NCBI RefSeq assembly: GCF_964213995.1
Contig: NC_135811.1
Location: 32,984,001-33,048,000, forward strand
Origin: Mustelus asterias
Taxonomy: Eukaryota
Direction of reading: 5' to 3'
Length of the DNA: 64,000 nt
In this document: one piece after another, positions 9,804 to 62,115 of the stretch
Layout of the letters: each line of letters begins with the position of its first letter
Numbering within the stretch: the stretch's first letter is position 1
Program-made: the position numbers and the translations under genes
Notes under the pieces: model-generated
Told to the model about the DNA's origin: nothing
What the model saw: only the letters and a program-made list of their open reading frames with translations
Databases searched by the model: none

Positions 9804-9903
9804 GTAAGAGTTTTAACAACACTAGGTTAAAGTCTTTAACCTGGTGTTGTTAAAACTCTTACTGTGTTCACCCCAGTCCAACGCCGGCATCTCCACATCA
9901 TGA
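9804..9903 (+). mobile_element. Penelope-like mini hairpin element (no ribozyme retained)
   Basis: ~29-bp inverted arms plus family tail ccccagtccaacgccggcatctccacatcatga; TSD tttccatattg at 9793-9803 and 9904-9914. Confidence 0.8.
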
Positions 9904-9954
9904 TTTCCATATTGATACAGATATTGGGTGTAACTATGTGACAATAAAGACCCA

Positions 9955-10073
9955 GGAATTTTACCGGCACGCCCACCCCGATTTCGGGGATGGGCGAGGC
10001 TTGGAGAATGGCATTCTCTGATGGCCTCGGGCAGGATCGTACAAACCTCGGACGGACGTGCCGGTAAAATTCC
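9955..10073. mobile_element. Short MITE
   Basis: Perfect 17-bp TIR ggaattttaccggcacg / cgtgccggtaaaattcc; a related, internally deleted copy is at about 43296-43382. Confidence 0.75.
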
Positions 10074-10949
10074 ACAACCTGTATGCTAACTTTGTCAGTT
10101 GCTTTGTGGACCCATTTGAAAGAGATTGTGGAGAAAATCTGTGCTGTAGAAATCATTGCTTTAGAATCTAAAAACAACTGGTCAGAACTTAATAGCAAAA
10201 AGGAGGCTATGGTGGTTATTGGAATATGTTACTCTGGGTAACATATTCCAAGATCAAAAGGATGGCTGAGCTGAAGGAGGAAACAGTGGTTAGTCAGAGA
10301 CAATGATGGAGACTCGAGCCCATGGAATGCAAAACAGCTCAGCCCTTTTGTATTGACGACAGCCCTGAATGCATTGGACTGAATAAAACATCAAAACCCA
10401 TCAGACATGTTCTGGATTTCAGTTTGCACTGCTTTCCTTGTTCTACAACCAGTCAAATCTATTTGTACAGCGTTCAGCAATTAATAAGGACATGTGACAA
10501 GAACACAGATACATGTCACAGAATGCGATAAAAATCATTTATAGGGAACCCAATATACAGCAAACAAAAGTGACTTTCAAACAGTGCTTCACAGCAACCA
10601 CAATGTGATGCTAAGGGTTCGATTCTCCGACCTTGCCTGCAGCCGGGATTCTCCAGTCCCGCTGCAGTGAACGGAGATTTGGCTGAGCGCCAAATTCTCC
10701 ATTCCGGCTGGCAGCGGCGACGGGTCATGAACGGCCAGAGAATTCCGGCCCCTTTCCTAAAAAAAAACAATGCGCGGTGGAAAGATTTAAGTGTCCATGA
10801 AATTCTGTGGCAAATGTGATGTATATCGGGTACGCATACCAGAATGATCACTTGTGGGTCAGGACAAAGCAAAGGGAGTTCATGGGGTTAACCAGATCTG
10901 ATTAAAACAGGAACCTTGTTAATATCCCTCAGGCTGGCCAGTCCCATGA

Positions 10950-11250
10950 TTTTTTTTAAATTCACTTGTGTGGGACACAGATATCACTGGCCAGAATTTA
11001 TTGCCCATCCCTAATCGCCCTGGAGAAAGTGCTGCTAAGCTGCCTTCTTGAACCACTGCAATCCATGTGGGGTAGGTACACCCACAGTGCTGTTAGGGAA
11101 GGAGTTCCCGGATTTTGCCCCAGTGACAGTGAAGGAATGGCTGATATATTTTGAAGTCAGGTGGCGGTGTTCCCATGCATCTGCTGCCCTTGTCCTTCTA
11201 GGTCATGGGTTTAGGAGGCGCTGTCTAAGGAGCTTTGTTAAGTTCCTGCA
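10950..11250 (-). mobile_element. LINE 3' fragment sharing its tail with the SINEs at 32476 and 49406
   Basis: Shared gggatgggcaataaa..ctggccag tail; LWNSFP remnant. Confidence 0.65.
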
Positions 11251-11939
11251 GATCATTGTAATGACATCTTACTGCAACCACCCATCTGAAGTTAAGAATT
11301 ATAGTGATTGTGAGGAAGCTGGAAACCTTAAAATTTAAAATGTTGACGGTTACAAGCAGGCATTCATCTGGCAACCAGAACCCCTGAAAGCATTTGGATC
11401 AGAGATGTCCCACACTGAAGAAATTTGGCAAAAATAAGAATTTTGCATTTAAATCCTGCTCACTTTAACTACAAGCTCAATCACAAAGTGCCAAAAACAT
11501 TTGTCCTCAGGGCTCTGTAGGGTTGGAAACCAGGTTTTCCAATGCAGTCCTAATTACAACAGTTCTCATCCCTCAGAGCATTTGATGTTTTTCAAATGTA
11601 CATGGGTTAAATATCATACACTTTAGTTTTTTTAACCTTTGGAATTTTTAAACAAAGCACGGAGAAATTTAACATTCCACAAATATAAAATCAGCCAAAA
11701 GGGTTGTTCAGCTGTAACTATGATTTGGTATGCTGTTACAAGCCCAGTTACACGTCATTCAATAAGGCTTAACATTTTCATGCGGAAAAGAGGAAGTTCA
11801 CAGCAACTCCGTGATTTCTAATTGATTTCCATCTGCTAGGACTACAGCAGTGTGTCCTGTGGAGAAACAGGGAGACACTGACAGCAACTTCTGGATTGCT
11901 GTGTTTAATTGTGCATGTGTTTAATTGTGCAAGCTCGTT

Positions 11940-13157
11940 AGGCAGATCGTGCCTTACGAGCCTGGTGGAGTTCTTCGAAAATGTGACTAAACACATTGAC
12001 GAAGGGAAAGCGGTAGATGTGGTTTATATGGATCTTAGCAAGGCGTTCGATAAGGTCCCCCATGCAAGGCTTCTAGAAAAAGTGAGAGGGCATGGGATCC
12101 AAGGGCCTGCTGCCCTGTGGATCCAGAACTGGCTTGCCCAAAGGAGGCAGAGAGTGTGTATAGATGGGTCTCTTTTTAAATGGAGGTCGGTCACCAGTGG
12201 TGTGCCCCAGGGATCTGTTCTGGGACCCTTGCTGTTTGTCATTTTCATAAATGACCTGGATGTGGAAGTGGAGGGATGGGTTGGTAAGTTTGCTGACGAC
12301 ACGAAGGTTGGTGGGGTTGTGGATAGTCTGGAGGGATGTCAGAAGTTACAGAGGGACATAGATAGGATGAAAGACTGGGCGGAGAAGTGGCAGATGGACT
12401 TCAACCCAGATAAATGCATAGTGGTCCATTTTGGCAGGTCAAATGGGATGAAGGAGTACAATATAAAGGGAAAGACTCTTAGTACTGTGGAGGATCAGAA
12501 GGACCTTGGGGTCCGGGTCCATAGGACTCTAAAATCGGCCCTGCAGGTGGAGGAGGTGGTTAAGAAGGCATATGGTGTGCTGGCCTTTATTAATCGAGGG
12601 ATTGAGTTTAGGAGTCTGGGGATAATGATGCAGCTATATCAGACCCTCGTCAGACCCCACTTGGAGTACTGTGCTCAGTTCTGGTCGCCTCATTACAGGA
12701 AGGATGTGGAAAAGATTGAAAGGGTGCAGAGGAGATTTACAAGGATGTTGCCTGGGTTGAGTGGCATGCCTTATGAGGATAGGCTGAGGGAGCTCGGTCT
12801 TTTCTCCTTGGAGAGACGTAGGATGAGAGGAGACCTAATAGAGGTACATAAGATGTTGAGAGGCATAGATCGGGTGGACTCTCAGAGGCTTTTTCCCAGG
12901 GTGGAAATGGCTGCTACGAGAGGACACAGGTTTAAGGTGCTGGGGGGTAGGTACAGGGGAAATGTTAGGGGGAAGTTTTTCACACAGAGGGTGGTGGATG
13001 AGTGGAATCGGCTGCCGTCAGTGGTGGTGGAGGCAAACTCAATAGGGTCTTTTAAGAGACTCCTGGATGAGTACATGGGACTTAAGGTAGGGATATGTTC
13101 GGCACAACTTGTGGGGCCGAAGGGCCTGTTTTGTGCTGTAGTTTTCTATGTTTCTAT
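11940..13157 (+). mobile_element. 5'-truncated CR1 LINE (RT C-terminal half)
   Basis: ORF 11896..13212 from GRSCLTSL through FADD and RFTRMLPGL; ttctatg tail; same subfamily as 55820-57554. Confidence 0.93.
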
Positions 13158-13339
13158 GTATGGATGTCAGAAGTTGCTCACACTTTCACAGTGTAATTAC
13201 AGTGAATGCTGACAGATTCACCAGCATTGTGACAGCAAATTCAGGCAAATGAATCTGCATTCTTCCGAGACAGCTAGCTTTAGATCAAATAGATTATTCT
13301 CCTCGAGTCCTGGCCAATTCCACACAAACGCCTTATGGC

Positions 13340-17898: not shown

Positions 17899-19375
17899 TC
17901 ATAGAGATTTACAGCATGGAAACAGGCCCTTTGGCCCAATTTGTCCATGCCGCCCAGTTTTTAATCACTAAGCTAGTCCCAATTGCCCACGTTTGGCCCA
18001 TATTCCTCTATATCCATCTTACCAAAGTAACTGTCTAAATGCTTGATGTGGATATGCAGGCGTTGGACTGGGGCGGGCACAGTAAGAGGTCTCACAACAC
18101 CAGGTTAAAGGCCAACGGGTTTATTTGGTATCAAGAGCTTTCGGAGCACTACTCCTTCAGGAGCTCACCTGATGAAGGTGAGAAGGTGAGTAGGTGAGTA
18201 GATGAGAAGGTGATGAAGTGGAACTCACCTGATGAAGCAGCAACGCTCCAAAAGCTCGTGATACCAAATAAACCTGTTGGACTTTAACTAAATGCTTTTT
18301 TAAAAAGACAAAATTGTACCCCGCCTCTACTCCTGCCTCTGGCAGCTCGTTCCAGACGCTCACCACCCTGTGTGTGAAAAAATTGCCCCTCTGGACCCTT
18401 TTGTATCTCTCCCCTCTCATTATGCCCTCTAGTTTTAGACTCCCCTGCCTTTGGGAAAAGGTGTTGATTATCTACCTTATCTACGCCCCTCATTATTTTA
18501 TAGACCTCTATAAGATCACCCTGAAGTCTCCTACACTCCAGGGAAAAAGGGCTAATCTATCCAGCCTCTCCTTATAACTCAAATCATCAAGTCCCGATAG
18601 CATTCTAATAATTCTTTTCTGCACTCTTTTTAGTTTAATAATATCCTTTCTATAATAGGGTGACCAGAACTATACATAGTATTCCAAGTGTGGCCTTACT
18701 AATGGCTTGTACAACTTCAACAAGCCATCCCAACTCCTGTATTCAATGTTCTGACCAATGAAATCATGCATGCCGAATGCCTTCTTCACCACCCTGTCCA
18801 CCTGTGATTCAACTTTTAAGGAGCTATGAACCTGTACTCCTAGATCTGTTTGTTCTATAACTCGCCCCAATGCCCTACCATTATCTGAGTAGGTCCTGCC
18901 CTGATTTGATCTACCAAAATGCATCACCTCACATTTATCTGAATTAAACTCCACCTGCCATTCATTGGCCCACTGGCCCAATTGATCAAGATCCCATTGC
19001 AATCCTAGATAACCTTCTTCACTGTCCACTATGCCACCAATCTTGGAATCATCTGCAAACTTACTAACCATGCCTCCTAAATTCTCATCCAAATCAGTAT
19101 ATAAATAACAATTAACAGTGGACCCAGCAATTATCCCTGAGGCACACCGCTGGTCACAGGTCTCCAGTTTGAAAATCAACCCTCTATAATCACCCTCTGT
19201 CTTCTGTCGTCAAGCCAATTTTGTATCCAATTGGCTACCTCACCCTGGATCCTGTGAAATTTAACCTTATGCAACAACCTACCATGCGGTACCTTGTCAA
19301 AGACCTTGCTAAAGTCCATGTAGATAACATCGACTACACTTCCCTCATCTAGCTTCTTGGTTACCCCTTCAAAAG
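17899..19375 (-). mobile_element. 5'-truncated CR1 LINE, same subfamily as 52099-54420
   Basis: ORFs 19176..19397 and 18670..19179 with DFSKVFDKVPH and FADD; tail at 17899; interrupted by the hairpin element 18045-18287. Confidence 0.92.
18045..18287 (-). mobile_element. Penelope-like hairpin element with two damaged hammerhead motifs
   Basis: Family tail inverted at the left end; inverted arms; TSD ctaaatgctt at 18035-18044 and 18288-18297. Confidence 0.8.
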
Positions 19376-19412
19376 ACTCAAGTCTGGAGTCTGCCACAGT
19401 GACACCTCATAC

Positions 19413-20200: not shown

Positions 20201-20555
20201 CTTTTCAGTTCAAATAAAACAAAACAAAAAAGGATTTTATTAGTCTGAACCCTGATGCCACAACATGGATTAGTTCTTAAGGAAACATTTGAAAACAAAT
20301 TGATCTTAACTTAAATCTGCCTTTTAAGCATAAATATTTATTCCAGTCCTTTAAAAGAGGTTTTCTAAAAAAATAAATAAATAGGAAACGAGAAACAGAG
20401 GAGATGATCGTTTAGCTCTGGACTATGTTCTGCCGCCATGCAGAGAGATCATGACTGATCAGCAATCCAGCTTCACATGCTCATCTTTGCTTCATATTCT
20501 GCAATACCAGGGCTTAATAAAAATCTGATCAATTTCAGTTTTAAATGTAATAAGT

Positions 20556-21020
20556 GATCTGGCGCCGACTGACCTGGCGCCGACTGACCTGGCGCCGACT
20601 GACCTGGCGCTAACTGACCTGGCGCTGACTGATCTGGCGCTAATTGATCTGGCGCTGACTGACCTGGCGCTGACTGACCTGGCGCTGACTGACCTGGCGC
20701 TGACTGACCTGGCGCTGACTGATCTGGCGCTGATTGATCTGGCGCTAATTGATCTGGCGCTGACTGACCTGGCGCCGACTGACCTGGCGCCGACTGACCT
20801 GGCGCCGACTGACCTGGCGCCGACTGACCTGGCGCTGACTGACCTGGCGCTGACTGATCTGGCGCTAATTGATCTGGCGCTGACTGACCTGGCGCTGACT
20901 GACCTGGCGCTGACTGACCTGGCGCTGACTGACCTGGCGCTAATTGATCTGGCGCTAATTGATCTGGCGCTGACTGACCTGGCGCTGACTGACCTGGCGC
21001 TGACTGATCTGGCGCTGAAA
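20556..21020. repeat. 15-bp minisatellite, 31 units (GAYCTGGCGCYRAYT)
   Basis: Exact 15-nt period from 20556 to 21006; 20 gacc-type and 11 gatc-type units. Confidence 0.98.
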
Positions 21021-21115
21021 GTGATTTCTGAAAGAGAATTCCAAACTTCTATCATCCTTGCCGTGTAATAGCATTTCTTAATTTTACTCCACAAAGGGCT
21101 GGCTCAAACATTTGA

Positions 21116-21241
21116 GGCTGGAATTTTACCGTCCCGTCCACCACGGTAATCAGAGCAGGCGAGGGGTGAACAATGGGAAGCTCCGTTGACCTCAGGCAGG
21201 ATTTTACAGTTTCAGGACAAGCGAGGATGTAAAATCCCGCC
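21116..21241. mobile_element. Short MITE
   Basis: ggctggaattttac / gtaaaatcccgcc. Confidence 0.65.
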
Positions 21242-27237: not shown

Positions 27238-27766
27238 CCCGGCAGCAGCAAGCAATTGCGTCATGAGACCTGACTGAAAAAGGTTTTGTGCTGTTTTCTT
27301 CAACTTAATATTTTGTTAAAACAGCACCGCCAGGAGAGGAACACCTTCAGAATTATTAAAACAATACTTTTTTTTAAAAAAGGTCGCTAAAAACACCACT
27401 GAGCAGTAAATAGAATTTCCTTTTCTTGATTAAAAAAGTAATTTCCTGGCTGCACATCTCATATATTTCATTCCTCCCGGAAGGATTTTATTTGATTAAA
27501 ATGATCACAGTGGGTGCACCATAGTGATCGCTAATTGCAGTACCACCTGCTACAACACAAGTGCCTCCACACCTGCATCAGTGACACAAAGGGAATATAG
27601 CCCAAAACAAGCATTGCTGTAAAATCAATTTACAACATGAACGTCGAGCAAATAGGTTTTTGCTTGCATAAGAATAAATTAAACTTTAACCCAGTTTCTT
27701 TATCTTCCCTCACAATTATCTTCCCTTCCCGACAGATATTTGTCTTTGGCTGGCCTTACCCAAATG

Positions 27767-27860
27767 CAATAAGAGTTTTAACAACACTAGGTTTTACCTG
27801 GTGTTGTTAAAACTCTTACTGTGTTTACCCAAGTCCAACGCCGGCACCTCCACATCATGA
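27767..27860 (+). mobile_element. Penelope-like mini hairpin element
   Basis: Inverted arms plus family tail; TSD cttacccaaatg at 27755-27766 and 27861-27872. Confidence 0.8.
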
Positions 27861-28331
27861 CTTACCCAAATGGCCATTATTCATGTCTGGAGTCTACTTG
27901 AACATGGAACACATCAAAACTGAGCAACAACCCTTAGCTCACAGAGACATGCACACTTCTAGCAGAGGTCAGTGAATAGCAAATCAGGACTGGAAAGCCC
28001 AGCTCATTTTCTTCCACCTGGAACAGCCTCTGGGGACAAAAGTAGGACTCCTGTCACTACTCTACTGCTATCAGCTAACTCCACACAAACTAAGGAACCA
28101 AATCTTTCCTCTGTGGCTTAGCTATTTACTGGCTCAACACATAGAGATATGGGCGCATGAGGTGACAGGTTCTTCGGAGTAAAAAACCTATTTATCTCAC
28201 GGTTACAGCTATAGTTGACCAAATTCTATTTTTGCAATTGTTACAGTACACAATTTGTAAATGTTATTAGGTTTCACCAATAATTATGAACAATGAATTT
28301 TAGTCCCTCACTTGTTCTGATACTTAGATAC

Positions 28332-29378
28332 GGGGCCCTATTTTACCATTGCGTCGCGCCCGTTTGGTGAAGTCGGCTGTGAGGCCATTAACATGAACCG
28401 CGCCCGCGTTTGCGCAGATGGCCACTTTGCTGAGACCCGGGAATGGCCGCGATCCGATTCACGCCCGAAACGGGCGCAACAGCGATTTAAATGTATTTGC
28501 ATGCATTTAAATTGAATTAATGAACTGCCCGCCCAACTTTATCGGCATTTCCCTCTTTACCACCGCGTTCGCTGATCCGGAATCGTGCCGAAATGGACAT
28601 GCTGAATAAAAGTCTGAATTGGGCGCTCCAGCTGCTGAAGAGGCGTGTTCAGCACTTCCAACAGGCTCGTTGACGCAGATCAGTGGTTGTGTGTGTGGGG
28701 GCGGGGGGGGGGGGGGGGGGGGCGGGGGGGGGGTCAGATCATTCTCTGGCTGGGGGGGTGGGGGGAGGGGAGTAAGGTCAGATCATTCTCTGGTTAGGGG
28801 GGGGGGGGGGAGGGCCGATCATTGTCTGGTGGTGGGGGGGGGGGGGGGGGGGGGCCGATCTTTCTCTGGTTGGGGGAGTGGGGGGGGAAGTGAGGCCAGA
28901 TCATTCTTTGGAGGGAGGGGGGAAGAGGAGGAGGCGGGTAAGATGGATCTCTGAGGGGTGGCGGTGGGGGGCAGAGGGGTCTGCTGCCACTCTGCGGGCG
29001 ATCGGTGGGGGGGGGGGGCGAAGGGGGGGCAGGGGGTCTCGATCGGTCTGAGTAGCAGTGGGGGATGGATAAGGCGGACAGTGATATTTGTGGGGGGCAT
29101 CGCTCCCGCTTTTCGCTCCCGGGCCGCTTTCTCCGCTTTTTGCGGCCCGGGAGCGATGTGACATGGGCGCGCTTTTTCAAATTTTTTCTAACTGCGCATG
29201 CGCAGTTCAGAGCTCCGATCGTTTTGGGCATACTATGCCCCGTCCACAGCACGATTCAGACTCGCGATTTTTTTTTCATGCTGAGTGCGTATGGGGGCGC
29301 CTGAAGGCAGATTTCCAAGTCGGATCTGAATTGCGCCCAGATTCAGCACTTAGAATGAAAATGGTGAAATCAGGTCCA
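28332..29378. mobile_element. ~1-kb GC/CpG-rich non-autonomous DNA transposon (MITE-like) with internal G-run repeats
   Basis: Imperfect TIR ggggccctattttaccatt / aatggtgaaatcaggtcca (14 of 19 match); sharp GC boundaries. Confidence 0.6.
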
Positions 29379-43110: not shown

Positions 43111-43262
43111 GCCCCTTCATCAGGTGAGTCACCTGATGAAGGGGCAGCGCTCCGAAAGCTAGTGGCGTGTGCTACCAAATAAACCTGTTGGACTTTAACC
43201 TGGTGTTGTGAAACTTCTTACTGTGTTTACCCCAGTCCAACGCCGGTGTCTCCACATAATGA
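43111..43262 (+). mobile_element. Penelope-like hairpin element with an intact hammerhead motif
   Basis: 17-bp perfect inverted arms centred on 43128, then hammerhead, aataaa and family tail. No long TSD seen. Confidence 0.8.
43128..43166 (+). ncRNA. Minimal type I hammerhead ribozyme motif; predicted cleavage after 43161 (CUA)
   Basis: GUCAC-CUGAUGA-A-GGGGC-AGC-GCUCC-GAAAG-CUA-GUGGC: core boxes intact, stems I and II pair, stem III reduced to palindromic AGCU (dimer-type). Confidence 0.78.
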
Positions 43263-44367
43263 AGGATAATCAGGACAGATTTATAAAAGACAATGGCCGG
43301 ACTTTTACCGGCACGAGCGGCATTCTCCGTTGGCCTCAGGCGGGATCTTACGAGCTTCAGACGGGCGAGGCAGTAAAATTCCGATAAATATGTCTCCAAT
43401 TAATTTGAGAGAGATCTAAGGGGAAATAATGGCTCAGATCTTCCAAGGAGGGACAGGCATCATCGGATGTTGCTGCACTTAAACGTTTCCCAACCCGATG
43501 CTGCTCTACATTTCTTCACAGGGATTGTGAGCCCAGTCTTCCCAAAAACGCATAGCACAGTGTCCTTCAGAGAGTTCTGCTGCAGTGGAGTAGAATTGTG
43601 CAGAGGGAAGGGAGCGGAGACAGCGCAAGCCCCCTTCTTATGGTGCTGGCTGTCACCAGGTAAGTTTAAAGGTTCAGTATGAATGCTAGTGAATGAGTGA
43701 GTGAACGATGAGTGAATGGGTAAGATGGTGGGGTGGGTAAGTGGATAGAGTGGAGCAGTTGAATCGAGGGAGTAAGGAATGTTAGTCGGGTCTGGGGTCA
43801 GTTTCAGTGATTGGGTGGTGGTGGAGGTGACTAGTTCAGTCTGTAGTTGCCCAGGAGTTAGACTAGGTTTTAATCTAACATTTCCTAGGTAACTATTCAG
43901 GTAGGCACATCGGAATTGCCTCAAGGAGACATTCATAGAGGGCCCAGGAAGCAGGGAAATTGCCCATTAGAAGTTGAAAATTCCCACATAGGTCAGCACA
44001 TTTCCACAGGTTCCCGATGTGCTTCTCAGTCACATGTCCAAAGATTTTGGCCAATGTGAAGTGTTTTGATAATGGGAAAGCAGGAGATGTTTTCCATACC
44101 AATTTCCATCAACGTTTCATATAACGTCACGTAGTAGATATGTCAGTAAAAATGAGGAGCACTGTTTTAAAGGAAACATGGGAGCATAGGCAGAAATTTG
44201 GCAAGAGCAAAGAAAAGAAAGAGCAATTGTTAATGGGTGTTTTACAAACTTGTTTTACAGACAAAGTGGGCAGTGGTGTTCGATAGGCATCAGGGTTAAG
44301 ACTTGTTTTATTTTACCCATATTCAACACGATATCAAAATTTGCAGAAAATATATGGGGTGGGGGGG

Positions 44368-46554: not shown

Positions 46555-46580
46555 AATCGCACAATTACATTGGTGCTTAG

Positions 46581-48256: not shown

Positions 48257-48933
48257 CTGAAAACAATTTAGGAAATGTCGTTAAGCCAGAATTTCTACTA
48301 ACCATCAGCTTAAAAAGAGGTTTTTTTTAAATATAGAAAAAGCACTTACAGGTAGGTGACTAAAAAAATGCATTAAAAAAATTACAATTATATCATGAGA
48401 TCAACCAATCACAACTGAGGAGAAAAGACAGGTAATTGACAAAATTACTTACGTAACTTTGACATTTTACAGCCAGTAAAATTACCCAATCACAACAAAA
48501 CAATTGTATCATGTGACTGCATGATATTATGACACCACTAACTGACTTGATTTTGAATATCACCAATGTGAGAACTTTTAAATAAGCAACTTATTTTTAA
48601 AAGGAGTGCGAAGCCACAAAAAATAAATCTTTCAAAAGATAAGTCTTTATTTGGCACACTGTATTCTGTTTAGAACATATGCTTGATTTTCAGTAACAGA
48701 TGGTTATCACTTTTTAAGCACAGTTTTGAATCTTAGGTCCAGAAGCTGAATCTTTTTGTGTGTTCTTCATCTAAAGCAGTGCATACGCAACAAGCTAACA
48801 CTTAATCATCCAGCTATTAGAATGAACATACATTTGTGCGACATTACCAAATTATCTTTAAAGCGGCAAATATTGCAACAGACAAGACCCAAACTGTTTG
48901 CAGATTAAAAAACAACTGAGACCTTCATTTACA

Positions 48934-49145
48934 GTAAGAAGTCTCACAACACCAGGTTAAAGTCAAACAGGTTTATTTGGAATCATGAGTTTTTGGAACA
49001 TTGCTCCTTCATCAGGTGACTCACCTGATGAAGGGGCAGTGCTCGGAAAGCTCGCGATTCCAAATAAACCTGTTGGACTTTAACCTGGTGTTGTGAGACT
49101 TCTTACTGTGCTCACCCCAATCCAATGCTAGCATTTCCACATCAT
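48934..49145 (+). mobile_element. Penelope-like hairpin element, longest inverted arms (~89 bp)
   Basis: Arms centred on 49020; TSD gaccttcatttaca at 48920-48933 and 49146-49159. Confidence 0.85.
49021..49057 (+). ncRNA. Minimal hammerhead ribozyme motif, core intact, stems weakened
   Basis: UCAC-CUGAUGA-A-GGGGC-AGU-GCUCG-GAAAG-CUC-GCGA. Confidence 0.65.
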
Positions 49146-49405
49146 GACCTTCATTTACAAACAGGCAGAACTATGAAGCCTAATAATCAGCATGCATATG
49201 CAAACAATACCATACAAGCATACAAAAAGAATCAGTAACAGGACAATTATCCTCTACCATCTAATAGAGTTTAGGGATGTTAAATGGCATGCACTTGTTA
49301 TAGTGGGTGGAATTTAACTTTTCTGTTGTGTGCTACTGGAACCTACATTGACCCTTATGCAGTGCTTAGATTTCCGAGGTGTTTTGCTTGGTTAACACAA
49401 TTGTT

Positions 49406-49738: not shown

Positions 49739-52098
49739 TCTTGTTGCAGGAATTCATGCACTGTTTCAAGCACTCTGATTGATATGCTTTAGGAATTAAA
49801 ACCACATTTCTCTGCTCCAAAGATCAGAAATCAAGGAACTGGAACAGCTGATCCAAAGCAGACCAGACTCCATGGCCTGGACTTTCACTGAGCTGGGACA
49901 ATGTGAGAATGTTAAAAACAGTTGACATGACTCCAGCGTTCCAATCTCCATTCCCATTTCAAGCAGCTTCTACCAGTATGGGGTAAGGATGTGAGGCAGC
50001 CTGTCCAACACAGCACTGCTGTTGTTGGCGCTATTGTAGCAGTGGACAGTTTAAATCCTGCCCCTGCACCCCACCACCAGTAAAATTGATCTAGTAAACA
50101 TTGGTTCCACTTTTGGACAGAAGCCCAAAGTAAACATTTAGTATAACAAAAGCAGATTGCTCACAAACTTGACCTCAATAGTCACTGACAGTATAAAAGG
50201 AGAAACTCTCCTATCTGAGATTTTCCCTAATTTATCACATGCTGCTGAACCCAAATTTATGAAGTGATGTCTATCTATTTAAACTCCTGTTAACAAGAGA
50301 CACAATTCCAAGTGGTTGCACTGTCTATAAGAAGGCTCCACATGAGAGCCGGTGCCTGAAGCATTTTCCCTTGTGTCCTGCATAGTTCTGTTTTGAACCG
50401 ACACAGGATAATGGGGTGAAGTCGCTTTTTCTGTGTGGTCAGAAAGCCAGAGTGTGAAATTCTATCATAATCTCTAAATGTCAGGGTCTACTGCTCTGAC
50501 TTTGCAGTGAATTAAAAGGAAATTTAATTCTGGATAATGTGACTTGAAGACTTCGAAATTACTGTCACTAATATTAGCAGACAAATGGTTAACATTTGTG
50601 TCACAGTCGATTCTCTGCAACTTTAACTGAAGTTTAATTTATTTATTTAAACTAAATAGATAAGTGCTTTGGTTAAATTCCTGGCAAAAGAGTGTCAAAG
50701 ACCAGTGTTAAGGACTTCTTTGTCAATGCCTCCAAGTGTAGTTTCTAGGCATAAGTAAAATTAGTGATGAAAAATTCCATTTAATCCAGTCAGCTTGCTT
50801 TGTCAACAAGGTCCAGATACTGTCCAGGAACTGGGGGAAGGTTTCGCACTTCAACATTCAGGCAGAACAGTTTGGCAAAACTGAAGTCCTAATTGCAAAC
50901 CCGGACACAAGCGGCTGACAATTTAATGAACGGAAAATCATGAGCAACTTGTGCCCAAGTCTGTGATGAATGTTTCCACCTTGCCAAGCTTCCGTGCCAA
51001 GGCACTGAAGAGGAAAATCTGCCCTTGTTGTGACCGTTGAATAGATTTTCCGTCATGTGCATGAATGCAGCCGAAATATTGCACCTGTCCGACTAAGGCA
51101 TGGCCAATCTAGTCAAATCTTCCAGAGTTGATAAGCAGAGTTACTCATTGATTTTGAGTTTCAGTCATTCAATCCACCCAGTCTGTGAGCTCACACACTT
51201 AGAGGTGGCAAATCTGGCACTGCTGCAACTAGTTAAAGTAACACTATAACCTTTTAAGGAGAAAAGTACTTTTGCGTAGCAAAAGGAAGTTCAGAATTTT
51301 GGAGCGTCCGTGCAGAGGATAAATCAGTTTATTTCAGGACCTTTTGTACAATCTACAATCAAAATGTGAACTTACCTAACTGATCTCTCGACAGATGCCG
51401 CCTGACCTGCTGAGTTTCCCCAATATTTTGTATTTGTATTTTTCTTTCACATTCCCAGTGTCAATTATTTTTGCATCAAAGGGCTGTTCAGATTGACAAA
51501 TGAAGCAGTTTAGATATATACAACGGAAGAGAAGGAAAAGGAGGCTTGCCCTCCACTGTACCCTTGCACAAGTTTAAGATTCTTGTTTGTGACTGGAGTA
51601 TGCAACTTCAGAGTTAACATGAAATTCAATGGTATTCTTCTCCTTCTTGAGCCCCCTGCCTGAAGGCAGGTCTATCCCACAATGCTGCAATCTCCACCAC
51701 AGATATGGTGAAGCAGGTCCCAATTCCATCCCAGCCAGAAAATGGATCACATCGAAAGCTGTTGGCACCAGTCTGATCCACACCGGATGTCCAGCCAGTC
51801 GGGCCAAGTGGTCTGAGATGCTGTGGCAACATACACCTTTAATTGAATGTTCTCATCAGGAACTATGGATAGGTGGTGGTAGAGGTTCCAATTTCTTTCC
51901 TGGTCATGGTTGACCAGGAATCTCTCCCACCACTGCCATTGGTAAACATTAGAAGGATTCACAAGTTGACACTCAACTTGTTTGGCCATGCTATGAACAC
52001 TCCTTCCTTGGCCATCAAGTCCTTGAGTGGGACTTGAGTATGAAAATTCTGTGTGTTACCTGCTGCACCAAAGACCTACTCAATTATGTTATGGTCAT

Positions 52099-54420
52099 TC
52101 AGTATGTGGATGGCCTGACTAGAGAGGGGGCAAAACTTGACCTCCTCTTGGGAAATAAGGAAGGGCAGGTGACAGAAATGTTAGTGAGGGTTCGCTTTGA
52201 AACCAGTGACCATAATTCTATTGGTTTTAAGATAGCTATGGAGAATGATAGGTCTGGCCCAACAGTTAAAATTCTAAATTCGGGCAAGGCCAATTTTGAT
52301 GGTATTAGGCAGGAACTTTCAAAAGTTAATTGGGGGAGTCTGTGGGAAGGCAAAAGGACGTCTAGTAAGTGGCACGCTTTCAAAAGTGTGTTAACCAGGG
52401 TTCAGGGTAAACACATTCCTCTTAGAGTGAAGGGCAAGGCTGGCAGAAGTAGGGAACCCTGGATGACTCAGGATATTGAGGCCCTGGTCAAGAAGAAGAA
52501 AGAGGCACGTGACATGCACAGGTAGCTGGGATCAAGTGAATCCCTTGAAGAGTATAGGGAGTGTAGGAGTAGAGTAAAGAGAAAAATCAGGAGGGCAGAC
52601 AAGGCAAAGAAGAATCCAAAGAGCTTCTACAAATACATAAAGGGCAAAAAAGTAACTAGGGAGAGAGTAGGACCTCTTAAGGATCAACAAGGTGATCTAT
52701 GTGCGGATCCACAAGAGATGGGTGAGATCCTAAATGAATATTTCTCAACAGTATTTACTATTGAGAAAAACATGGATGTTAGGGAACTTGGGGAAATAAA
52801 TAGTGATGTCTTGAGTAGTGTACATATTACAGAGGAGGAGGTGCTGGAAGTCTTAAAGCGCATCAAGGTAGATAAATCCCCGGGACCTGATGAAGTGTAT
52901 CCCAGAGCATCCTGGGAGGCTAGGGAGGAAATTGCAGGTCCCCGAGCCGAGATATTTGAATCATCGATTGTCACGTGTGAGGTGCCTGAAGATTGGAGAG
53001 TGGCAAATGTTGTGCCTTTGTCTAAAAAGGGCTGCAGGGAAAAGCCTGGGAACTACAGGCCAGTGAGCCTCAGATCTGTGGTGGGTAAGTTGTTGGAAGG
53101 TATTTTGAGAGACAGGATCTACAGGTATTTAGAGACGCAAGGACTGATTAGGGACAGTCAGCATGGCTTTGTGAGTGGAAAATCATGTCTCACAAATTTG
53201 ATTGAGTTTTTTGAAGGGGTAACCAAGAAGGTAGATGAAGGCAGTGCAGTTGATGTTGTCTACGTGGACTTTAGCAAGGCCTTTGACAAGGTACCGCATG
53301 GTAGGTTGTTGCATAAAGTTAAATCTCATGGGATCCAGGGTGAAGTATCTAAATGGATACAAAATTGGCTTCTTGACAGAAGCCAGAGGGTGGTTTTTCA
53401 AACTGGAGGCCTGTGACCAGCGGTGTGCCTCAGGGATCAGTGCTGGGTCCACTGTTATTTGTCATTTATATTCATGATTTGGATGAGAATATAGGAGGCA
53501 TGGTTAGTAAGTTTGCAGATGACACTAAGATTGGTGGCATAGTGGACAGTGAAGAAAGTTATCTCCAATTGCAACGGGATCTTGATCAATTGGGCCAGTG
53601 GGTTGACGAATGGCAGATGGAGTTTAATTTAGACAAATACGAGGTGATGCATTTTAGTAGATTGAACCAGGGCAGGACTTACTCAGTTAATGGTAGGGCG
53701 TTGGGGAGAGTTACAGAACAAAGAGATCTAGGGGTACATGTTCACAGCTCCTTGAAAGTGGAGTCACAGGTGGACAGAGTGGTGAAGAAGGCATTCGGCA
53801 TGCTTGGTTTCATCGGTCAGAACATTGAATACAGGAGTTGGAATGTCTTGTTGAAGTTGTACAAGACATTGGTAAGGCCACACTTGGAATACTGTGTGCA
53901 ATTCTGGTCACCCTAGTATAGAAAGGATATTATTAAACTAGAAAGAGTGCAGAAAAGATTTACTAGGATGCTACCGGGACTTGATGGATTGAGTTATAAG
54001 GAGAGGCTGGATAGACTGGGACTTTTTTCTCTGGAGTGTAGGAGGCTGAGGGGTGATCTTATGGAGGTCTATAAAATAATGAGGGGCACAGATCAGCTGG
54101 ATAATCAATATCTTTTCCCAAAGATAGGGGAGTCTAAAACTAGAGGGCATAGGTTTAAGGTGAGAGGGGAGAGATACAAAAGTGTCCAGATGGGCATTGT
54201 TTTCACACAGGAACAAGCTGCCAGAGGTAGTAGTAGAGGCGGGTACAATTTTGTCTTTTAAAAAGCATTTAAATAGTTACATGGGTACGATGGGTATAGA
54301 GGGATATGGGCCAAATGCGGGCAATTGGGATTAGCTTAGGGGTTTTAAAATAGAAAGGGCGGCATGGACAAGTTGGGCCGTAGGGCCTGTTTCCATTCTG
54401 TAAACCTCTATGACTCTATG
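52099..54420 (+). mobile_element. 5'-truncated decayed CR1 LINE, (ACTCTATG)n-tail subfamily
   Basis: Consecutive broken ORFs 52034, 52718, 53413 and 53947 carry EN-end and RT motifs; tail ctctatgactctatg. Confidence 0.92.
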
Positions 54421-55819: not shown

Positions 55820-57554
55820 AGTTTGTGCGGAACCGTTAGAAATGGCGGAGCTGCTTAATGAATACTTTACCTCGGTATTCACGGTGGAAAGGGATCTGGG
55901 TGGTTGTACTGCTGGTTTGCGGTGGACAGAAAGGATCGAGCATGTGGACATAAAGAAAGAGGATGTGTTGGAACTATTGAATGGCATCAAGGTTGGTAAG
56001 TCGCCGGGACCGGATGGGATGTACCCCAGGTTACTGTGGGAGGCGAGGGAGGAGATTGCGGAGCCTTTGGCGATGATCTTTGCATCGTCGATGGAGACGG
56101 GAGAGGTTCCGGAGGATTGGAGGATTGCAGATGTGGTCCCTATATTCAAGAAAGGGAACAGGGACAGCCCGGGTAATTACCGACCGGTGAGTCTAACCTC
56201 AGTGGTTGGTAAGTTGATGGAGAGGATCCTGAGAGACAGGATTTATGATCATCTAGAGAAGTTTAGTATGATCAAAAGTAGTCAGCACGGCTTTGTCAAG
56301 GGCAGGTCGTGCCTTACGAGCCTGGTTGAGTTCTTTGAAAATGTGACCAAACACATTGACAAAGGAAGAGCGGTGGATGTGGTCTATATGGACTTCAGCA
56401 AGGCGTTCGATAAGGTCCCCCATGCAAGACTTCTTGAGAAAGTGAGAGGGCATGGGATCCAAGGGGCTGTTGCCTTGTGGATCCAGAACTGGCTTGCCTG
56501 CAGAAGGCAGAGAGTGGCTGTGGAGGGGTCTTCCTCTGCATGGAGGTCAGTGACCAGTGGAGTGCCCCAGGGATCTGTTCTGGGACCCTTGCTGTTTGTC
56601 ATTTTCATAAATGACCTGGATGAGGAAGTGGAGGGATGGGTTGGTAAGTTTGCTGACGGCACCAAGGTAGGTGGTGTTGTGGATAGTTTGGAGGGATGTC
56701 AGAAGTTGCAGCGAGACATAGATAGAATGCAAGACTGGGCGGAGAAGTGGCAGATGGACTTCAACCCGGATAAGTGTGTGGTGATCCATTTTGGCAGATC
56801 CAATGGGATGAAGCAGCAGTATAATATGAAGGGTACCATTCTTAGCAGTGTAGAGGATCAGAAGGACCTTGGGGTCCGGGTCCATAGGACTCTTAAATCG
56901 GCCTCGCAGGTGGAGGATGCGGTCAAGAAGGCGTACGGCGTACTGGCCTTCATTAATCGAGGGATTGAGTTTAGGAGTCGGGAGATAATGCTGCAGCTTT
57001 ATAGGACCCTGGTTAGACCCCACTTGGAGTACTGCGCGCAGTTCTGGTCACCTCATTACAGGAAAGATGTTGAAGCCATTGAAAGGGTGCAGAGGAGATT
57101 TACAAGGATGTTGCCTGGATTGGGGGGCATGCCTTATGAGGATAGGTTGAGGGAGCTTGGTCTCTTCTCCCTGGAGAGACGAAGGATGAGAGGTGACCTG
57201 ATAGAGGTTTACAAGATGTTGAGAGGTCTGGATAGGGTAGACTCTCAGAGGCTATTTCCAAGGGCTGAAATGGTTGCTACGAGAGGACACAGGTTTAAGG
57301 TGCTGGGGGGTAGGTACAGAGGAGATGTCAGGGGTAAGTTTTTCACTCAGAGGGTGGTGGGTGAGTGGAATCGGCTGACGTCGGTGGTGGTGGAGGCAAA
57401 CTCGTTGGGGTCTTTTAAGAGACTTCTGGATGAGTACATGGGATTTAATGGGATTGAGGGCTATAGATAGGCCTAGAGGTGGGGATGTGATCGGCGCAAC
57501 TTGTGGGCCGAAGGGCCTGTTTGTGCTGTGGCTTTCTATGTTCTATGTTCTATG
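55820..57554 (+). mobile_element. 5'-truncated CR1 LINE, open RT frame but FADD mutated to FADG
   Basis: ORF 55842..57470, 542 aa; (TTCTATG)3 tail. Confidence 0.93.
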
Positions 57555-57686: not shown

Positions 57687-57907
57687 TAGCTTCTTCTCTG
57701 CTGCCATCAGACTTTTGAATGGACCTACCCTGTATTAAGCTGATCTTTCTCTATACCCTATCTGTAACTGTAACACTACATTCTGCACTATCCCCTTTCC
57801 TTCTCCCCTACGTACTCTACGAACAGTTTGCTTTGTCTGTATAGCACATAAGGAACAATACTTTTCATTGGATCCTAATACACGTGACAATAATAAATCA
57901 AATCAAA
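57687..57907 (+). mobile_element. Short 3' fragment of the same Rex1-type LINE
   Basis: Matches 27024-27237 by eye, same tail. Confidence 0.75.
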
Positions 57908-58961
57908 ATGTTGCAGAAAATAAATGATTTAACTGCACATATCCTGCTTTAGACTCACATTTCCAACAAACTTTGTATAATTTTCTTTGTCATTTTAAGA
58001 ATATTTGCCATCAATCAGTTGCTGAGAAATGCCATTTGTTGTCATTAAACAAAGTCCATCCTCCTGCCCCTCAATTTGAATCGAACTGGAGTGATATTGG
58101 AAATTAATGAAAACAGCCTTATGTTTTTGAGACTATTTGTAAGAGAGCCCATAAATAAAGATGAATTTGGAAGCATTCACATTCAGTGTTGTCTTTGCAT
58201 AACCCCTATAGGATAATGATTAACTCAGTTTATCTATACAGATGTAATCCTAGAGCAACTCAGTTTAGAACGTACATTGGGCCAATGGGACAACCGCATA
58301 GACTCACCATTTAGAGAATGAATAAACACTCCCATTTTGTGGGAAAATAGATGCGCTGGCCAACTCACATAAATATTGGTGGCAAAACTGTCAACGTTAA
58401 ATATTTGCTGCAGATGGAATTTCAGCACGGAGCAATATTTCTACCACTGATAAAAGTTCAACTGTTAGTTTAAATAAATTCCCCAAGAAAGCCCACATCG
58501 AATGCCTTTGTAAGGCTTTCCTTAAATGTTGGCACTGTTCTGTCATCTACCACCAGTTACAAATGTGAGAAATTTCATTTAAACTAACTTTTCTGAACTT
58601 AGTATTTCAGAGGCTGCGCCAAGGATCAGTGTAGCAGCTATGATTACGATAAGATTGTAGTTCTGATTTTGGAAATAACAGGGTGCTTTAAGTATCAATA
58701 CTGACGGGGGTAAAAACTGAAGCCATCCCAAATGAGGTCAAACTAAACTTCTCAGTGAAAACTGGCTTGAAATTAAATTTACACATTAGTAGTTGCACCA
58801 CAGAAGAGAAAATCCCAGAAATACAACACGAGGATTTCTAAAGAATCCAATATTGCACAATACAATGTAGGCAACTTCTGAAACTATTTATATCGGATGT
58901 TCAAAGTAAATGTTATTTTTCAAAATATGATCCACATATTAGACTTAATTAATAAGCTTAC

Positions 58962-59039
58962 CAATTCAGAGTTGAAGGTGTTGCATATACCATAATCCAA
59001 GCCCTTGTTTTCCAGACCTTTGGTTAAAAGAGTCACCAT
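58962..59039 (-). CDS. FAM53B: FAM53B first coding exon (coding part), MVTLLTKGLENKGLDYGICNTFNSEL
   Basis: ATG in strong Kozak context (gttaccATGG), 78 nt / 26 codons, ends at TTG|gtaagc donor (phase 0). Resembles the recalled human FAM53B N-terminus MVMVLSESLSTRGADSIACGTFSREL in length and in several residues. Too short for the ORF track. Confidence 0.88.
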
Positions 59040-59171
59040 GGTAACATAGTCAACTCTCTGAATCCATTACACTGTGGGCAGCAGTCTGTAGGTATCATTT
59101 TAAGCCACATCTTCCATTTCAGGTCACCACGAGAGCTAGTTGTGAGTATACTACTGCAATGCTCTTCATAA
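59040..59171 (-). promoter_or_regulatory. FAM53B: Predicted 5' UTR portion of the FAM53B start-codon exon, containing six upstream AUGs
   Basis: Minus strand shows branch-like ctcac, a pyrimidine tract (ccttctctttttctctc) and an acceptor ggacag| just before 59171. uATGs at 59169, 59117, 59110, 59098, 59067 and 59047. Confidence 0.6.
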
Positions 59172-60103
59172 CTGTCCAATACCACAAACGAGAGAAAAAG
59201 AGAAGGGTACAGGTGAGTTTTGTGTACAATATATCAAAAACTTGAAGAATTAAATATCTGCTGAACATTTATTTCCTCCCTCCTTCTACCCCCCCCCCCC
59301 CTCCCCCCACCACCACTCCTCCCTGTCACCACCCTCAGCACATTGTGCATTATGTCTCAGGCAAGATTTGTCAAGTGACTTGTATTCAGATCTCTTGGCA
59401 ACTCTGCTCTCTAACCATCTGCAACTCATCAATAAATAAGAGTTCAGTGCAGCATCCCCATGAAACTTCATTCCTGTTTGGGAGGTGACTGGCTTCTACT
59501 GTGTCCTCTTAGTGTCGTGACTGAGGTCAGGGAATCAACGTTTGGTGAATCACAAGCATGAACCAGATCCTAAACTCGGTGCCACAGCCTTGTTTGTATG
59601 TTGTGTCTTTCCATGCCTGCATTGGAATAAAGGCTGAGGCCAGTTGCTAAACAGAATAGATGGGAATTATTGACGTGAAAATACTGCAACACATTTCTAC
59701 ATTTGATTCCATTGACGTCCTAAGGTATTTAATTGGAAATCAGACATGTTACATCCAACTTCACGCCAAGTATACTAGCACTACAATTTTATTTGCACCC
59801 GCCTTGTTTAATTCATGTAACACAGGTAATAGTGAGTTCATATTTTAGGAAAGCAGATGTGATACTTTGCTCATGCAGGATGTTTGGTGATCTGTGTGCA
59901 GACATTTTCCTACGGTGAGATTTCTATATTTTTTCAACTTAATTTGAACCCTAATAGGTTCATTGTTAAAATCAATGAGTTCAGTTGAAGTGATGAAATT
60001 GAAGTACTGCTAACCATCTTCTTTATTCTGTCTCCTCCGCCCTCACCTCCATCAGTGTGAGGAGTTCATGGATATTTTTGTCATTAAGATTGAGATCATA
60101 CAA

Positions 60104-60285
60104 TCCAAAGATGTGCGGGTTAGGTTGATTGGCCAGGTTAAAAATTGCCCCTTAGAATCCTAAAATGCGTAGGTTAGAGGGATTAGCGGGTAAATATGTG
60201 GGGGTAGGGCCTGGGTGGGATTGTGGTCGGTGCAGACTCGATGGGCCGATTGGCCTCCTTCTGCACTGGAGGGATTCTATGATTC
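60104..60285 (+). mobile_element. 5'-truncated HE1-like SINE
   Basis: tccaaagatgtgcgggttagg...gggattctatgattc. Confidence 0.82.
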
Positions 60286-60289
60286 ATAA

Positions 60290-62115
60290 TCAGCTGCCTT
60301 TGCCATATTTTCCCCTTCCTCCAGCCCACAGGGCTAAATTTCCTCTGAACTTCCCCCTGCCCAAGCACTGAACTAACATCTTTCTCTAGGTTCTCTCCCA
60401 TCTCCTTGGTGCCTTGTCTGAGCTCACTTTGTCTACGAGACTTGTCTTCTGTTCCCTCAATCCTGTCCCCTAATTGATCATCCAATTTCCTTTCTTGGTC
60501 CGCATGTTAGTTTCTCTTTGAACATTGTCTCTTTCTTTTAAATCTGTCATCATCAACCTTTCTCCTCAAAAAAAAAATTCCTTGACCTCCATCGTCCATC
60601 TCAAACCTCCCCGGGCATGTTACTGCCTCCCAAATCTGTGTCCATCATTCCCTGGGCTGCATGCTCGAGTCCCGCCAATCTAATTCCCAACCATCACAAT
60701 ATTAAAACAGCTCTTATCAAAGAACAGTGCAGCACAGGAACAGGCCCTTCAGCCCTCCAAGCCTGTGCCGATCACATTGTCCTATCTGGACCAATCACCT
60801 GTATCAAAGTCACAAATGACACCCTCTGTCACTGGAACAAAGATAAATTTCTCCTCCTCGTCCTGTCTGCAGCCTTGGTCGCAGTTCACCACACCATCCT
60901 CCTCCAATGCCTCTCTGCGGTCATCCTGCTGGTGCCATTTTTATCAATCTATTCCTACGCAGAATCTTATTTGTAATGGCTTTCTGCTCTCACACCATTA
61001 CTTCTGGACACTCCCTATCCTGGAGCCTTTCCCATTTCTCATCTACAACTCCTCATCAGTGACTTCATCCAAAAACACATTAGATTTCATGCATGTGCTG
61101 ATAACACCCAGCTCTAACTCCTCTACTGATGTTAAATTATCTGATGTCTTACCCAGCACCCAGTGCTGAATGAGCAGATATTTTCTCCAATTAAATATTT
61201 GCAAGATTGAAGCCATTGTTTTTGGTCTCTGCTCCAATTCCTAACTAAGAAGTTTAACAACACCAGGTTAAAGTCCAACAGGTTTATTTGGTTGTGGCTT
61301 TTGCTACCAAATAAACCTGTTGGACTTTAACCTGGTGTTGTTAAACTTCTTACTGTGTTTACCCCAGTCCAACGCCGGCATCTCCACATCAATTCCTAGC
61401 TACCATCTCTCTGTAACAGACTGAGACCTTTTAGCCTGTCAATGCCAATTGGTATCAAACTTGATCCCAAGAGGAGTTTTCAACTATATATTTCCACCTT
61501 TGCGATATTGTCTGAATTCATTCATTTCAGCTTATCCGCTGTAGAAACCCTCATTCATGTCTTAGTTAGTTATCGCTCCACTTAACTATTCCAATGCAGT
61601 CCTGGCTAGTCTCCCACATTTTACCTTCCTTAAACTCAAGGTCAAGCAAACTCTGTCGCCTGTGTCTTAACTCACACCAAGTCCCGTTCACCTACCATCG
61701 CAGAGTTTGCTGACCTACAGTGGCTCCCAGACAAGCAATTGATTGTAAAATTCCCATCCTGGTTTTCAAATTCTTCCATGGTCTCACCCCTCCCTATCTC
61801 TGTAATCTTCCCTAGACCCACAATCCTCTCTCAGATACCTGCACTCTTCTAACTCTGGCCCCCTGTGCATTCCAAATTATGATCGCTCCACCATTGGTAG
61901 CCTAGGCCTCTGGAATATCCTCACTATTAGTCTCCACCTCACTTTCCCCCTGAAGACACTCTTTAAATCCTCTCTCTTTGACCTGACTTTTGGTCATCTG
62001 ATCAAATATCTCCTTATTTGGCTTGGTATCATATTTTGTTTGAAAATGCTTCTGAGAAGCATCTGGAGACATTTTATTCGATTAAAGGCGTGGTATAAAT
62101 ATGAGTTATTGTTGT
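60290..62115 (+). mobile_element. Decayed L2-clade LINE
   Basis: Pyrimidine-rich; remnants FLQLNI.K.EAIVFG and ADL.WLP; tail tataaatatgagttattgttgt; hosts the hairpin element at 61246. Confidence 0.7.
61246..61390 (+). mobile_element. Penelope-like hairpin element whose sense arm starts at the predicted ribozyme cut site
   Basis: ~45-bp inverted arms plus tail; TSD caattcctaacta / caattcctagcta (61235-61247, 61390-61402). Confidence 0.82.

Follow-up and report, generated by a model that had tools for sequence, protein, structure and literature searches.

Six short insertions lie scattered over a 64,000-nt stretch of the Mustelus asterias genome (the window), all with one 3' end, each with an inverted arm, some bearing a hammerhead ribozyme or its remains. 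Are they a separate ORF-less family, processed by its own ribozyme and mobilised in trans, as a sequence-only reading proposed, or are they fragments of something larger? As argued below, they are very probably the dead-on-arrival, 5'-truncated 3' ends (a pseudo-LTR, or pLTR, plus a tail of ~35 nt) of an autonomous EN+ Penelope-like element (PLE) of the Neptune type.

The copies in the window

BLAST against copy 5 finds the shared 3' end in all six copies (E 3e-12 to 2e-35), where the sequence-only reading had placed them, and self-BLAST finds an inverted arm in each. The copies, their target-site duplications (TSDs) and the one complete hammerhead in the window are the following, with body starts given relative to the predicted cleavage site.

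9804..9903, plus strand: copy 1; inverted tail-less arm 9804-9834, body 9834-9903, starting at +33
9793-9803 and 9904-9914: TSD of copy 1, 11 bp, exact
18045..18287, minus strand: copy 2; body 18159-18044, short inverted arm 18225-18288
18035-18044 and 18288-18297: TSD of copy 2, 10 bp
27767..27860, plus strand: copy 3; inverted arm, then body from 27792, starting at +34
27755-27766 and 27861-27872: TSD of copy 3, 12 bp
43111..43262, plus strand: copy 4; body 43129-43261, starting at -35
43129..43165, plus strand: intact minimal type I hammerhead of copy 4, the only complete one in the window
48934..49145, plus strand: copy 5; 89-bp inverted tail-less arm 48931-49019, body 49021-49146, starting near -37
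48920-48933 and 49146-49159: TSD of copy 5, 14 bp
61246..61390, plus strand: copy 6; inverted arm 61246-61292, body 61293-61391, starting at +1
61235 and 61390: TSD of copy 6, 13 bp with 1 mismatch

The five TSDs of 10-14 bp are as originally described; at the flanks of copy 4 none longer than 6 bp was found. That each 5' arm is an inversion of its own body is true of all six, but the arm of copy 4 is only an inner remnant of 17 bp (43111-43127), and that of copy 2 is short, ending ~20 nt before the usual outer end and separated from its body by ~65 bp of slipped-repeat filler. Copies 1, 3 and 6 start downstream of the cleavage site, copies 1 and 3 being without a hammerhead. Copy 6 is identical to an intact young unit at 99 of 99 bases (100% over 99 bp).

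The parent element

Followed upstream, longer copies of the same sequence run through a common 3' UTR into the C-terminus of a GIY-YIG protein. [quoted passage not shown] The start codon of this ORF is the very ATG at which the ~35-nt 'tail' ends. The RVT_1 domain is matched at E 4e-10; the GIY-YIG profile match (E 7e-4 to 2e-3) is below the Pfam cut-off, the motif itself being seen directly, preceded by a CX4CX2C linker. The closest named proteins come from sharks, which agrees with the original description of a shark retroelement; no relative of solved structure was found at E<=0.1.

All 19 measurable intact ORFs have a truncated copy upstream and full tandems also occur, marking the repeated segments as pLTRs, and it is within the pLTR that the hammerhead motif sits. 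The layout of the short copies recurs in a 5.7-kb insertion (locus L062): an inverted, tail-less copy of 2.3 kb is followed by pLTR, ATG, ORF and pLTR, all within an 11-bp TSD with 1 mismatch. With its RT/GIY-YIG ORF, pLTRs, inverted copy, tail and pLTR hammerhead, the parent is an EN+ Penelope-like element; its assignment to the Neptune type is a probable one, the clade being read from the linker motif rather than from a tree, and the homologues found being unnamed or labelled 'uncharacterized'.

The tail 28-mer has 61,105 exact occurrences in the genome, and a protein search with the GIY-YIG C-terminal peptide gives 75,247 first-look candidates. About 99 of 150 scored N-terminal matches (a hand count) lie in open frames of at least 897 amino acids, and all 20 of the full-frame loci that were fetched carry the 893-residue ORF, 99.4-100% identical to the reference. 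The family, of the Neptune type so defined, is very large and recently active. The sequence-only reading had suggested a genome search for copy number and an autonomous partner, and was right to expect a Penelope-like terminus and an enzyme encoded outside the window: searched by tblastn with the intact ORF, the window gives no match. 'ORF-less' is accordingly correct for the window and wrong for the family, the longer copies of which carry the ORF.

One continuous series of copies

We surveyed 196 copies, 156 of them tail-selected in a first sample and 40 in a second. All were picked by exact 28-mers from the initial ~39 Mb of a single contig, so that young copies are favoured. (In one copy, L075, an internal duplication disrupted the anchored alignment, and it was entered as long; L281 was left out of the 5' junction parsing.) Short and long copies have one layout: a TSD, an inverted tail-less copy, and a direct copy with its tail. 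TSDs of at least 10 bp flank 98 of 148 testable copies, as against 1 of 300 mismatched-flank controls. The inverted pLTR of the original description is present as an inverted arm in 138 of the 196 copies, and in 109 of the 156 tail-selected ones the arm stops ~30-36 nt before the tail does.

Might the short copies nevertheless be a non-autonomous family, retrozyme- or SINE-like, with short masters of its own, processed by the hammerhead and dependent on a Penelope protein for mobilisation in trans? A short master could produce what is seen in 119 of the 156 tail-selected copies and 146 of the whole 196, namely a body of at most 250 nt, and could also account for 5' ends that concentrate within 23 nt, above all in the older subfamilies (22/33 in subfamily A and 15/30 in D). 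However, every subfamily contains both short and long copies, lengths run continuously from 30 bp to more than 500 bp, the ends spread across those ~23 nt and beyond, and not one fold-back junction recurs among 130 fold-back copies, so that there is no fixed unit. Tandem arrays of short hammerhead units, the criterion for retrozymes in bioRxiv 10.64898/2026.07.22.740005, are absent from the window and the sampled loci, in which the only tandems are 3.1-kb coding ones. Moreover, the Poseidon protein requires an ORF start downstream of its priming site (PMC11167929), and the short copies have none. Since the copies are continuous with intact ones, their junctions are unique and their tail ends at the ORF's ATG, we abandon the notion of a separate family mobilised in trans and regard it as very unlikely.

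Long palindromes with TSDs are also what MITE-like DNA transposons with terminal inverted repeats would present, and copy 6 does fold at z -16.5. Against that, the tail lies outside the inverted repeat and on one side only, copy length varies continuously, and 58 of the 196 copies have no inverted arm; the likelihood of this reading is negligible. What the copies consist of is the 3' terminus of an element with an RT/GIY-YIG ORF, which rules out a DNA transposon.

The hammerhead

In copy 4 the ribozyme consists of stem I, a CUGAUGA box (43133-43139), an extra A, a 5-bp stem II, GAAA and a palindromic AGCU, with cleavage predicted after 43161, the position first proposed. The statement that the longer copies carry a hammerhead is good for copy 4 but not for the other two: in copy 5 the closing pair of stem II is G.G and stem I has one mismatch, and in copy 2 the motif is broken in both arms, the body being without the CUGA box and the arm having AAAA in place of GAAA. 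Among 86 copies of the family, 85 could be parsed as hammerheads and one could not, by a procedure that tolerated mismatches but was anchored on the core. Invariant core positions are kept in 79-85 of these 85, N7 shows all four bases, and H17 is U, A or C in 84. The first pair of stem I is C-G in 52 and U-A in 25, and the third pair of stem II is A-U in 48, G-U in 24 and G-C in 11. These counts bear out, at the level of sequence comparison, a minimal dimer-type type I hammerhead with covarying stems I and II; the covariation is between subfamilies and stems from few subfamily-founding events only. The pLTR hammerhead is under purifying selection.

Folding is less informative. Monomer folding energies (z -0.5 to +1.3) are an uninformative measure, and co-folding of two copies, which says little in itself, gave no dimer topology. 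An Rfam scan of the window copies called no hammerhead family at E<=10. Dimeric cleavage by small PLE hammerheads is the subject of a paper cited in PMC6765202. The ribozyme would most likely act as a dimer, or with the help of a protein, on multimeric transcripts of the parent. It is unlikely to act in the tiny copies, in which there is just one, in most cases truncated or mutated, and the fold-back masks it.

Where the copies begin

If the template RNA were cut by the hammerhead, and short insertions were copied from the 3' product, 5' ends should gather at the cleavage site. Copy 6 starts there, and so do L089, L126 and L185, at the first base after the site; yet only 4 of 156 ends fall within 2 nt of it (rate ratio 1.6, p=0.26), and none of the 40 in the second sample, making 4 of 196. 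Cleavage was also found unnecessary for insertion in vitro by the Poseidon protein, with no reads ending at the site (PMC11167929). 'Ribozyme-processed' thus loses its support and a cleaved template is improbable, although an excess of a few percent at the site may be compatible with 196 copies.

The ends gather instead 28-50 nt upstream of the cleavage site (56 of 127 copies at risk), and this hotspot recurs in the fresh sample. Arm and body ends coincide to within 3 nt more often than expected, outside the hotspot too (17 of 76, against 2.8 expected), which agrees with a common RNA 5' end for the two cDNAs, and near-exact coincidence was replicated in the second sample (7 of 25, p=0.0007). 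Ranked by position, arm and body ends correlated strongly in the first sample (rho 0.69; 77 TSD-supported pairs of 99) but not significantly in the second (rho 0.20; 25 pairs). A hotspot at which arms and bodies often stop together hints that short copies may be cDNAs run to the start of their RNA. Contigs from four public runs have loose ends at the same places (contigs cannot show transcript starts); among the runs listed as containing the sequence, none is of RNA.

We consider it plausible, if just short of probable, that the hotspot is the 5' end of pLTR-initiated transcripts, in which case the commonest product would be a run-off cDNA of ~125-145 nt. Four of the five subfamilies (38 of 41 copies) have a TATA-like box ~30 nt upstream, much as in the TATA and Inr-like layout of a rotifer pLTR (PMC3846280). 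Subfamily D runs counter to this, having the hotspot without the box (0 of 11 copies), and so does the rarity of hotspot ends in intact copies (1 of 19 measurable) and in the youngest subfamily (1 of 10).

The hotspot could alternatively be a block to reverse transcription, by bound protein or by RNA structure just 5' of the ribozyme. A block is favoured by the position of the hotspot, which directly adjoins the hammerhead fold on its 5' side, and again by the behaviour of subfamily D. But a hairpin would stall the enzyme on entry, from the 3' side, and not after passage, and both the coincident ends outside the hotspot and the TATA-like box weigh against a block; it is a possible but somewhat doubtful explanation.

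A putative insertion pathway

For the preferred reading, truncated products of the autonomous element, a pathway may be borrowed from the biochemistry of Poseidon (PMC11167929). The ORF protein would bind its own RNA at the pLTR-ORF junction and nick both target strands ~12-13 bp apart, and two cDNAs would be primed at two internal sites ~35 nt apart. One would become the body with its tail; the other, linked to it head to head, would form the arm, inverted and tail-less. The majority of cDNAs would stop early. The source of this model is Poseidon in vitro and not a Neptune-type element, and PMC3846280 favours, in place of two-site priming, self-priming on an antisense template for inverted junctions.

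A more specific version is tentative: both cDNAs would be made on one uncleaved RNA and run to its 5' end, and pLTR-start transcripts would yield mainly ~130-nt fold-backs. Such transcripts would have one usable priming junction and so give 'strong-stop-like' insertions, and full-length copies would need longer read-through or circular templates.

Relation to known elements

PLEs typically have an adjacent copy that is inverted and 5'-truncated, and a tail of 30-40 bp (PMC8557442, PMC3846280). EN+ PLEs of the Neptune clade (Craig et al. 2021, PMC8557442; Arkhipova et al. 2013, PMC3846280) resemble the shark family in these features, the tail being at one end, and in a single ORF with RT and GIY-YIG, partial-tandem pLTRs, TSDs and the linker between RT and endonuclease (CX2-5CxxC, common also to Nematis; PMC8557442). 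The shark family differs in its very high copy number, in its many near-identical intact ORFs, and in a tail that ends exactly at the ORF's ATG; in Neptune PLEs it ends inside the ORF.

According to the main text portions of Cervera & De la Pena 2014 (PMC4209133), which include no shark example, the min-HHR of metazoan PLE pLTRs are, like ours, type I without stem III, with a palindromic 15.2-16.2, an extra base between 9 and 10.1 and a G10.1-C11.1 pair, and occur mostly as single motifs in truncated PLEs or as opposite-strand pairs 100-700 bp apart. The 5-6 bp stem II of the shark family sets it apart from them. As described in the available text of Frangieh et al. 2024 (PMC11167929), Poseidon of Anolis carolinensis likewise has two 3' ends a tail-length apart, a hammerhead upstream of them, and cleaved RNA that is not evidently the main template; it belongs to another clade, its ORF starting inside the hammerhead and its priming sites lying within the ORF. 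That text contains no description that we found of arm-length pairing or of a 5'-end hotspot.

Animal non-LTR retrozymes, reported in one chondrichthyan genome (bioRxiv 10.64898/2026.07.22.740005), are also short, non-coding, hammerhead-bearing and derived from PLE pLTRs. Their units, each containing a hammerhead, are arrayed head to tail, whereas the shark copies stand singly as head-to-head insertions, each with a junction of its own. PLE architecture with a small ribozyme and mirror-image ends is already published, and a shark retrozyme system is not what is here. What the copies provide is counts on how PLEs make inverted ends and on whether the hammerhead cuts the template: the cleavage site is avoided by the ends, which gather just upstream of the ribozyme and are paired from one arm to the other. 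Should the specific version of the pathway be true, it would account for the abundance of solo minimal hammerheads in the genomes of animals; the many near-identical intact ORFs would offer a ready Neptune-type enzyme for testing it.

Because the exact tail is matched by only 2 of the 6 window copies, its 61,105 occurrences suggest that the family is a source of the order of 10^5 short DNA hairpins. Such fold-backs can be mistaken for microRNA precursors; Rfam miRNA families do match copies 1 and 6, below their gathering scores, on account of the palindromes.

Insertions in the window

The six short fold-back insertions are a real feature, and their Penelope-like element (PLE) class, inverted ends, tail and hammerhead are already published: a layout of inverted copy plus tail is typical of PLEs (PMC8557442 and PMC3846280), and truncated PLEs have been described as a source of single minimal hammerheads (PMC4209133). 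All six lie where the sequence-only reading had placed them (BLAST against copy 5, E-values 3e-12 to 2e-35):

9804-9903, copy 1
18045-18287, minus strand, copy 2
27767-27860, copy 3
43111-43262, copy 4
48934-49145, copy 5
61246-61390, copy 6

Each has a body (a direct copy of the pseudo-LTR, pLTR, plus a tail of ~35 nt) and, as had been reported, an adjoining arm, inverted and tail-less (6/6; in copy 4 reduced to its inner 17 bp). Five carry the claimed TSDs of 10-14 bp; at the flanks of copy 4 there is none longer than 6 bp. In copy 2, ~65 bp of filler (18160-18224) separates arm from body; it consists of slipped repeats drawn from the 5' region of the hammerhead, a pattern such as repeated template jumping at the arm-body joint would leave.

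The parent element

No part of the parent ORF was found in the window. The autonomous RT and GIY-YIG partner that the sequence-only reading had invoked was found elsewhere in the genome, starting from matches to the copy 5 body. Seven of the 30 best genomic matches extend upstream into common sequence, which in the longest of the seven is the end of a GIY-YIG reading frame. With the C-terminal GIY-YIG peptide as query there are 75,247 first-look candidates in the genome (150/150 scored are identical to it); the N-terminal 100 residues yield 4,333, and open frames of at least 897 aa surround ~99 of the 150 matches that were scored (hand count). Each of twenty loci fetched from these latter matches contains an 893-aa ORF with 99.4-100% identity to the reference ORF; tandem copies repeat every 3,097 bp. 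One intact 893-aa copy (L263, C11:36017000-36024200) is on the window's own contig, ~3 Mb away. At another sampled locus, L062, a 5.7-kb insertion has the layout of the tiny ones, in the order TSD, inverted tail-less 2.3-kb copy, pLTR, ORF, pLTR with tail, TSD. The tail common to the six insertions has its 3' limit at the ATG of the parent ORF, and copy 6 equals an intact parent unit at 99/99 bases. The exact tail 28-mer occurs 61,105 times in the genome (control, 0), and two variants differing from it by one base account for another 5,134 and 5,182 occurrences.

An RT domain is detected in the parent protein; the GIY-YIG match is weak and was obtained on other copies of the ORF. The protein has a CX4CX2C linker, the CX2-5CxxC type being a mark of Neptune and Nematis (PMC8557442). 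Its nearest named relatives are shark proteins (85-94% over part of their length), followed by turtle proteins (42-45%). No shark description of the element turned up in the open-access papers searched. bioRxiv 10.64898/2026.07.22.740005 reports retrozymes in one chondrichthyan, and the parent family may be among those listed in its supplements.

By eye, the sense strand of the pLTR tail (for example 61348-61368) resembles a 3' splice site, with branch-like motif, pyrimidines and CAG, 5' of the ATG; some PLEs have an intron in the pLTR (PMC2377424).

Genomic population of copies

A first sample of 156 copies was drawn by exact tail 28-mers, which favours young copies, from the start of contig C1 with 5' ends disregarded; a fresh sample of 40 brings the total to 196. 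The body is at most 250 nt in 146 of these and an inverted arm is present in 138, the arm ending ~30-36 nt before the tail end. A TSD could be tested for in 148 copies, and 98 of them have one of at least 10 bp (mode 12-13); mismatched controls gave 1 in 300. Both end positions, tail-less and tail, also show up as loose contig ends in four public runs. The proposal of a separate, ORF-less family does not survive: no fold-back junction recurs (0/130 among sampled copies), and short and long members occur together in all subfamilies. The short copies are accordingly truncation products of the parent element and do not form a separate lineage.

The hammerhead ribozyme

The hammerhead claimed for the longer window copies stands for copy 4, the one copy in which the motif is complete (43129-43165). 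In copy 5 the closing pair of stem II is gone, and copy 2 is broken in both of its arms. The bodies of copies 1, 3 and 6 begin only 3' of the predicted cleavage site. An Rfam scan did not call the window motifs. Among 86 sampled copies extending beyond stem I, 85 were parsed; fixed core positions are retained in 79-85 of these, each of the four bases occurs at N7, and 84/85 have U, A or C at position 17. The covariation that the sequence-only reading predicts in stems I and II is present across copies: the first pair of stem I occurs as C-G in 52 copies and as U-A in 25, the third pair of stem II as A-U in 48, G-U in 24 and G-C in 11. The changes behind these counts are few, dating from the founding of subfamilies. 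In its features the motif agrees with the min-HHRs of PMC4209133, a study in which cleavage by such motifs was poor even in dimeric form.

Where copies stop

With 5' ends numbered from the base that directly follows the predicted cleavage site, there is no pile-up at that site: 4/156 within 2 nt in the first sample (rate ratio 1.6, p=0.26) and 0/40 in the second. Copies stop instead at -28 to -50 (47 of 103 at risk, rate ratio 6.3), an interval picked post hoc on the first sample and held fixed for the second, in which the hotspot recurs (9/24, rate ratio 5.7, p=1.4e-4). Arm-less copies share it (12/39), and loose contig ends at -35 to -37 occur in independent runs. Among the open-access papers listed for pLTR starts and truncation, none is on such a hotspot.

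In the first sample, 24 of the 77 pairs backed by a TSD have arm and body stopping within 3 nt of each other (5 expected); the second sample gives 7/25 (p=0.0007), and outside the hotspot the figure is 17/76 (2.8 expected). The rank correlation of the two ends was not replicated in the second sample. The pairing of ends suggests a common RNA 5' end.

Insertion mechanism

For a Poseidon element, PMC11167929 showed both target strands to be cut and extended, reverse transcription to begin at two internal sites flanking the tail, downstream ORF sequence to be required and hammerhead cleavage to be dispensable. By analogy, two cDNAs off one pLTR-ORF junction would give body and arm. The hotspot may mark where transcription starts, a reading that we put at slightly below even odds: four subfamilies have a TATA-like box ~30 nt farther upstream (38/41 copies), PLE promoters are located in the pLTR (PMC2377424) and a rotifer pLTR has a TATA plus Inr-like layout (PMC3846280). 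But subfamily D has the hotspot with no TATA-like box (0/11), the youngest subfamily uses it in only 1/10, and of the 19 intact copies that could be measured just one has its end in this interval.

Other repeats in the window

51951-52025, minus strand, within ~51850-52090: HDV-like fold, 35.4 bits (Rfam; gathering score of the CPEB3 ribozyme, 35)
9953-10078, 43297-43385, 21120-21208: MITE-like elements of ~120 bp with terminal inverted repeats (also L062, ~6480-6600)
20465-21124: tandem array, 15-bp period, ~44 units
28664-29020: G-rich repeats, ~40 bp period, possible G-quadruplex region
~11900-13100, 36800-38250, 39700-41250, 52100-54330, 55900-57420: several LINE fragments, which we take to be CR1-like from their appearance

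The HDV-like repeat belongs to a family other than the PLE copies (1,117 candidates; 40/40 scored confirmed, ~80% identical), and by eye the fold looks to sit after a tRNA-derived SINE head; this candidate SINE-borne ribozyme family is possibly worth separate study. SINE copies are numerous in the window, and in two cases a MITE-like element stands downstream of a Penelope copy, no more than 60 bp away.
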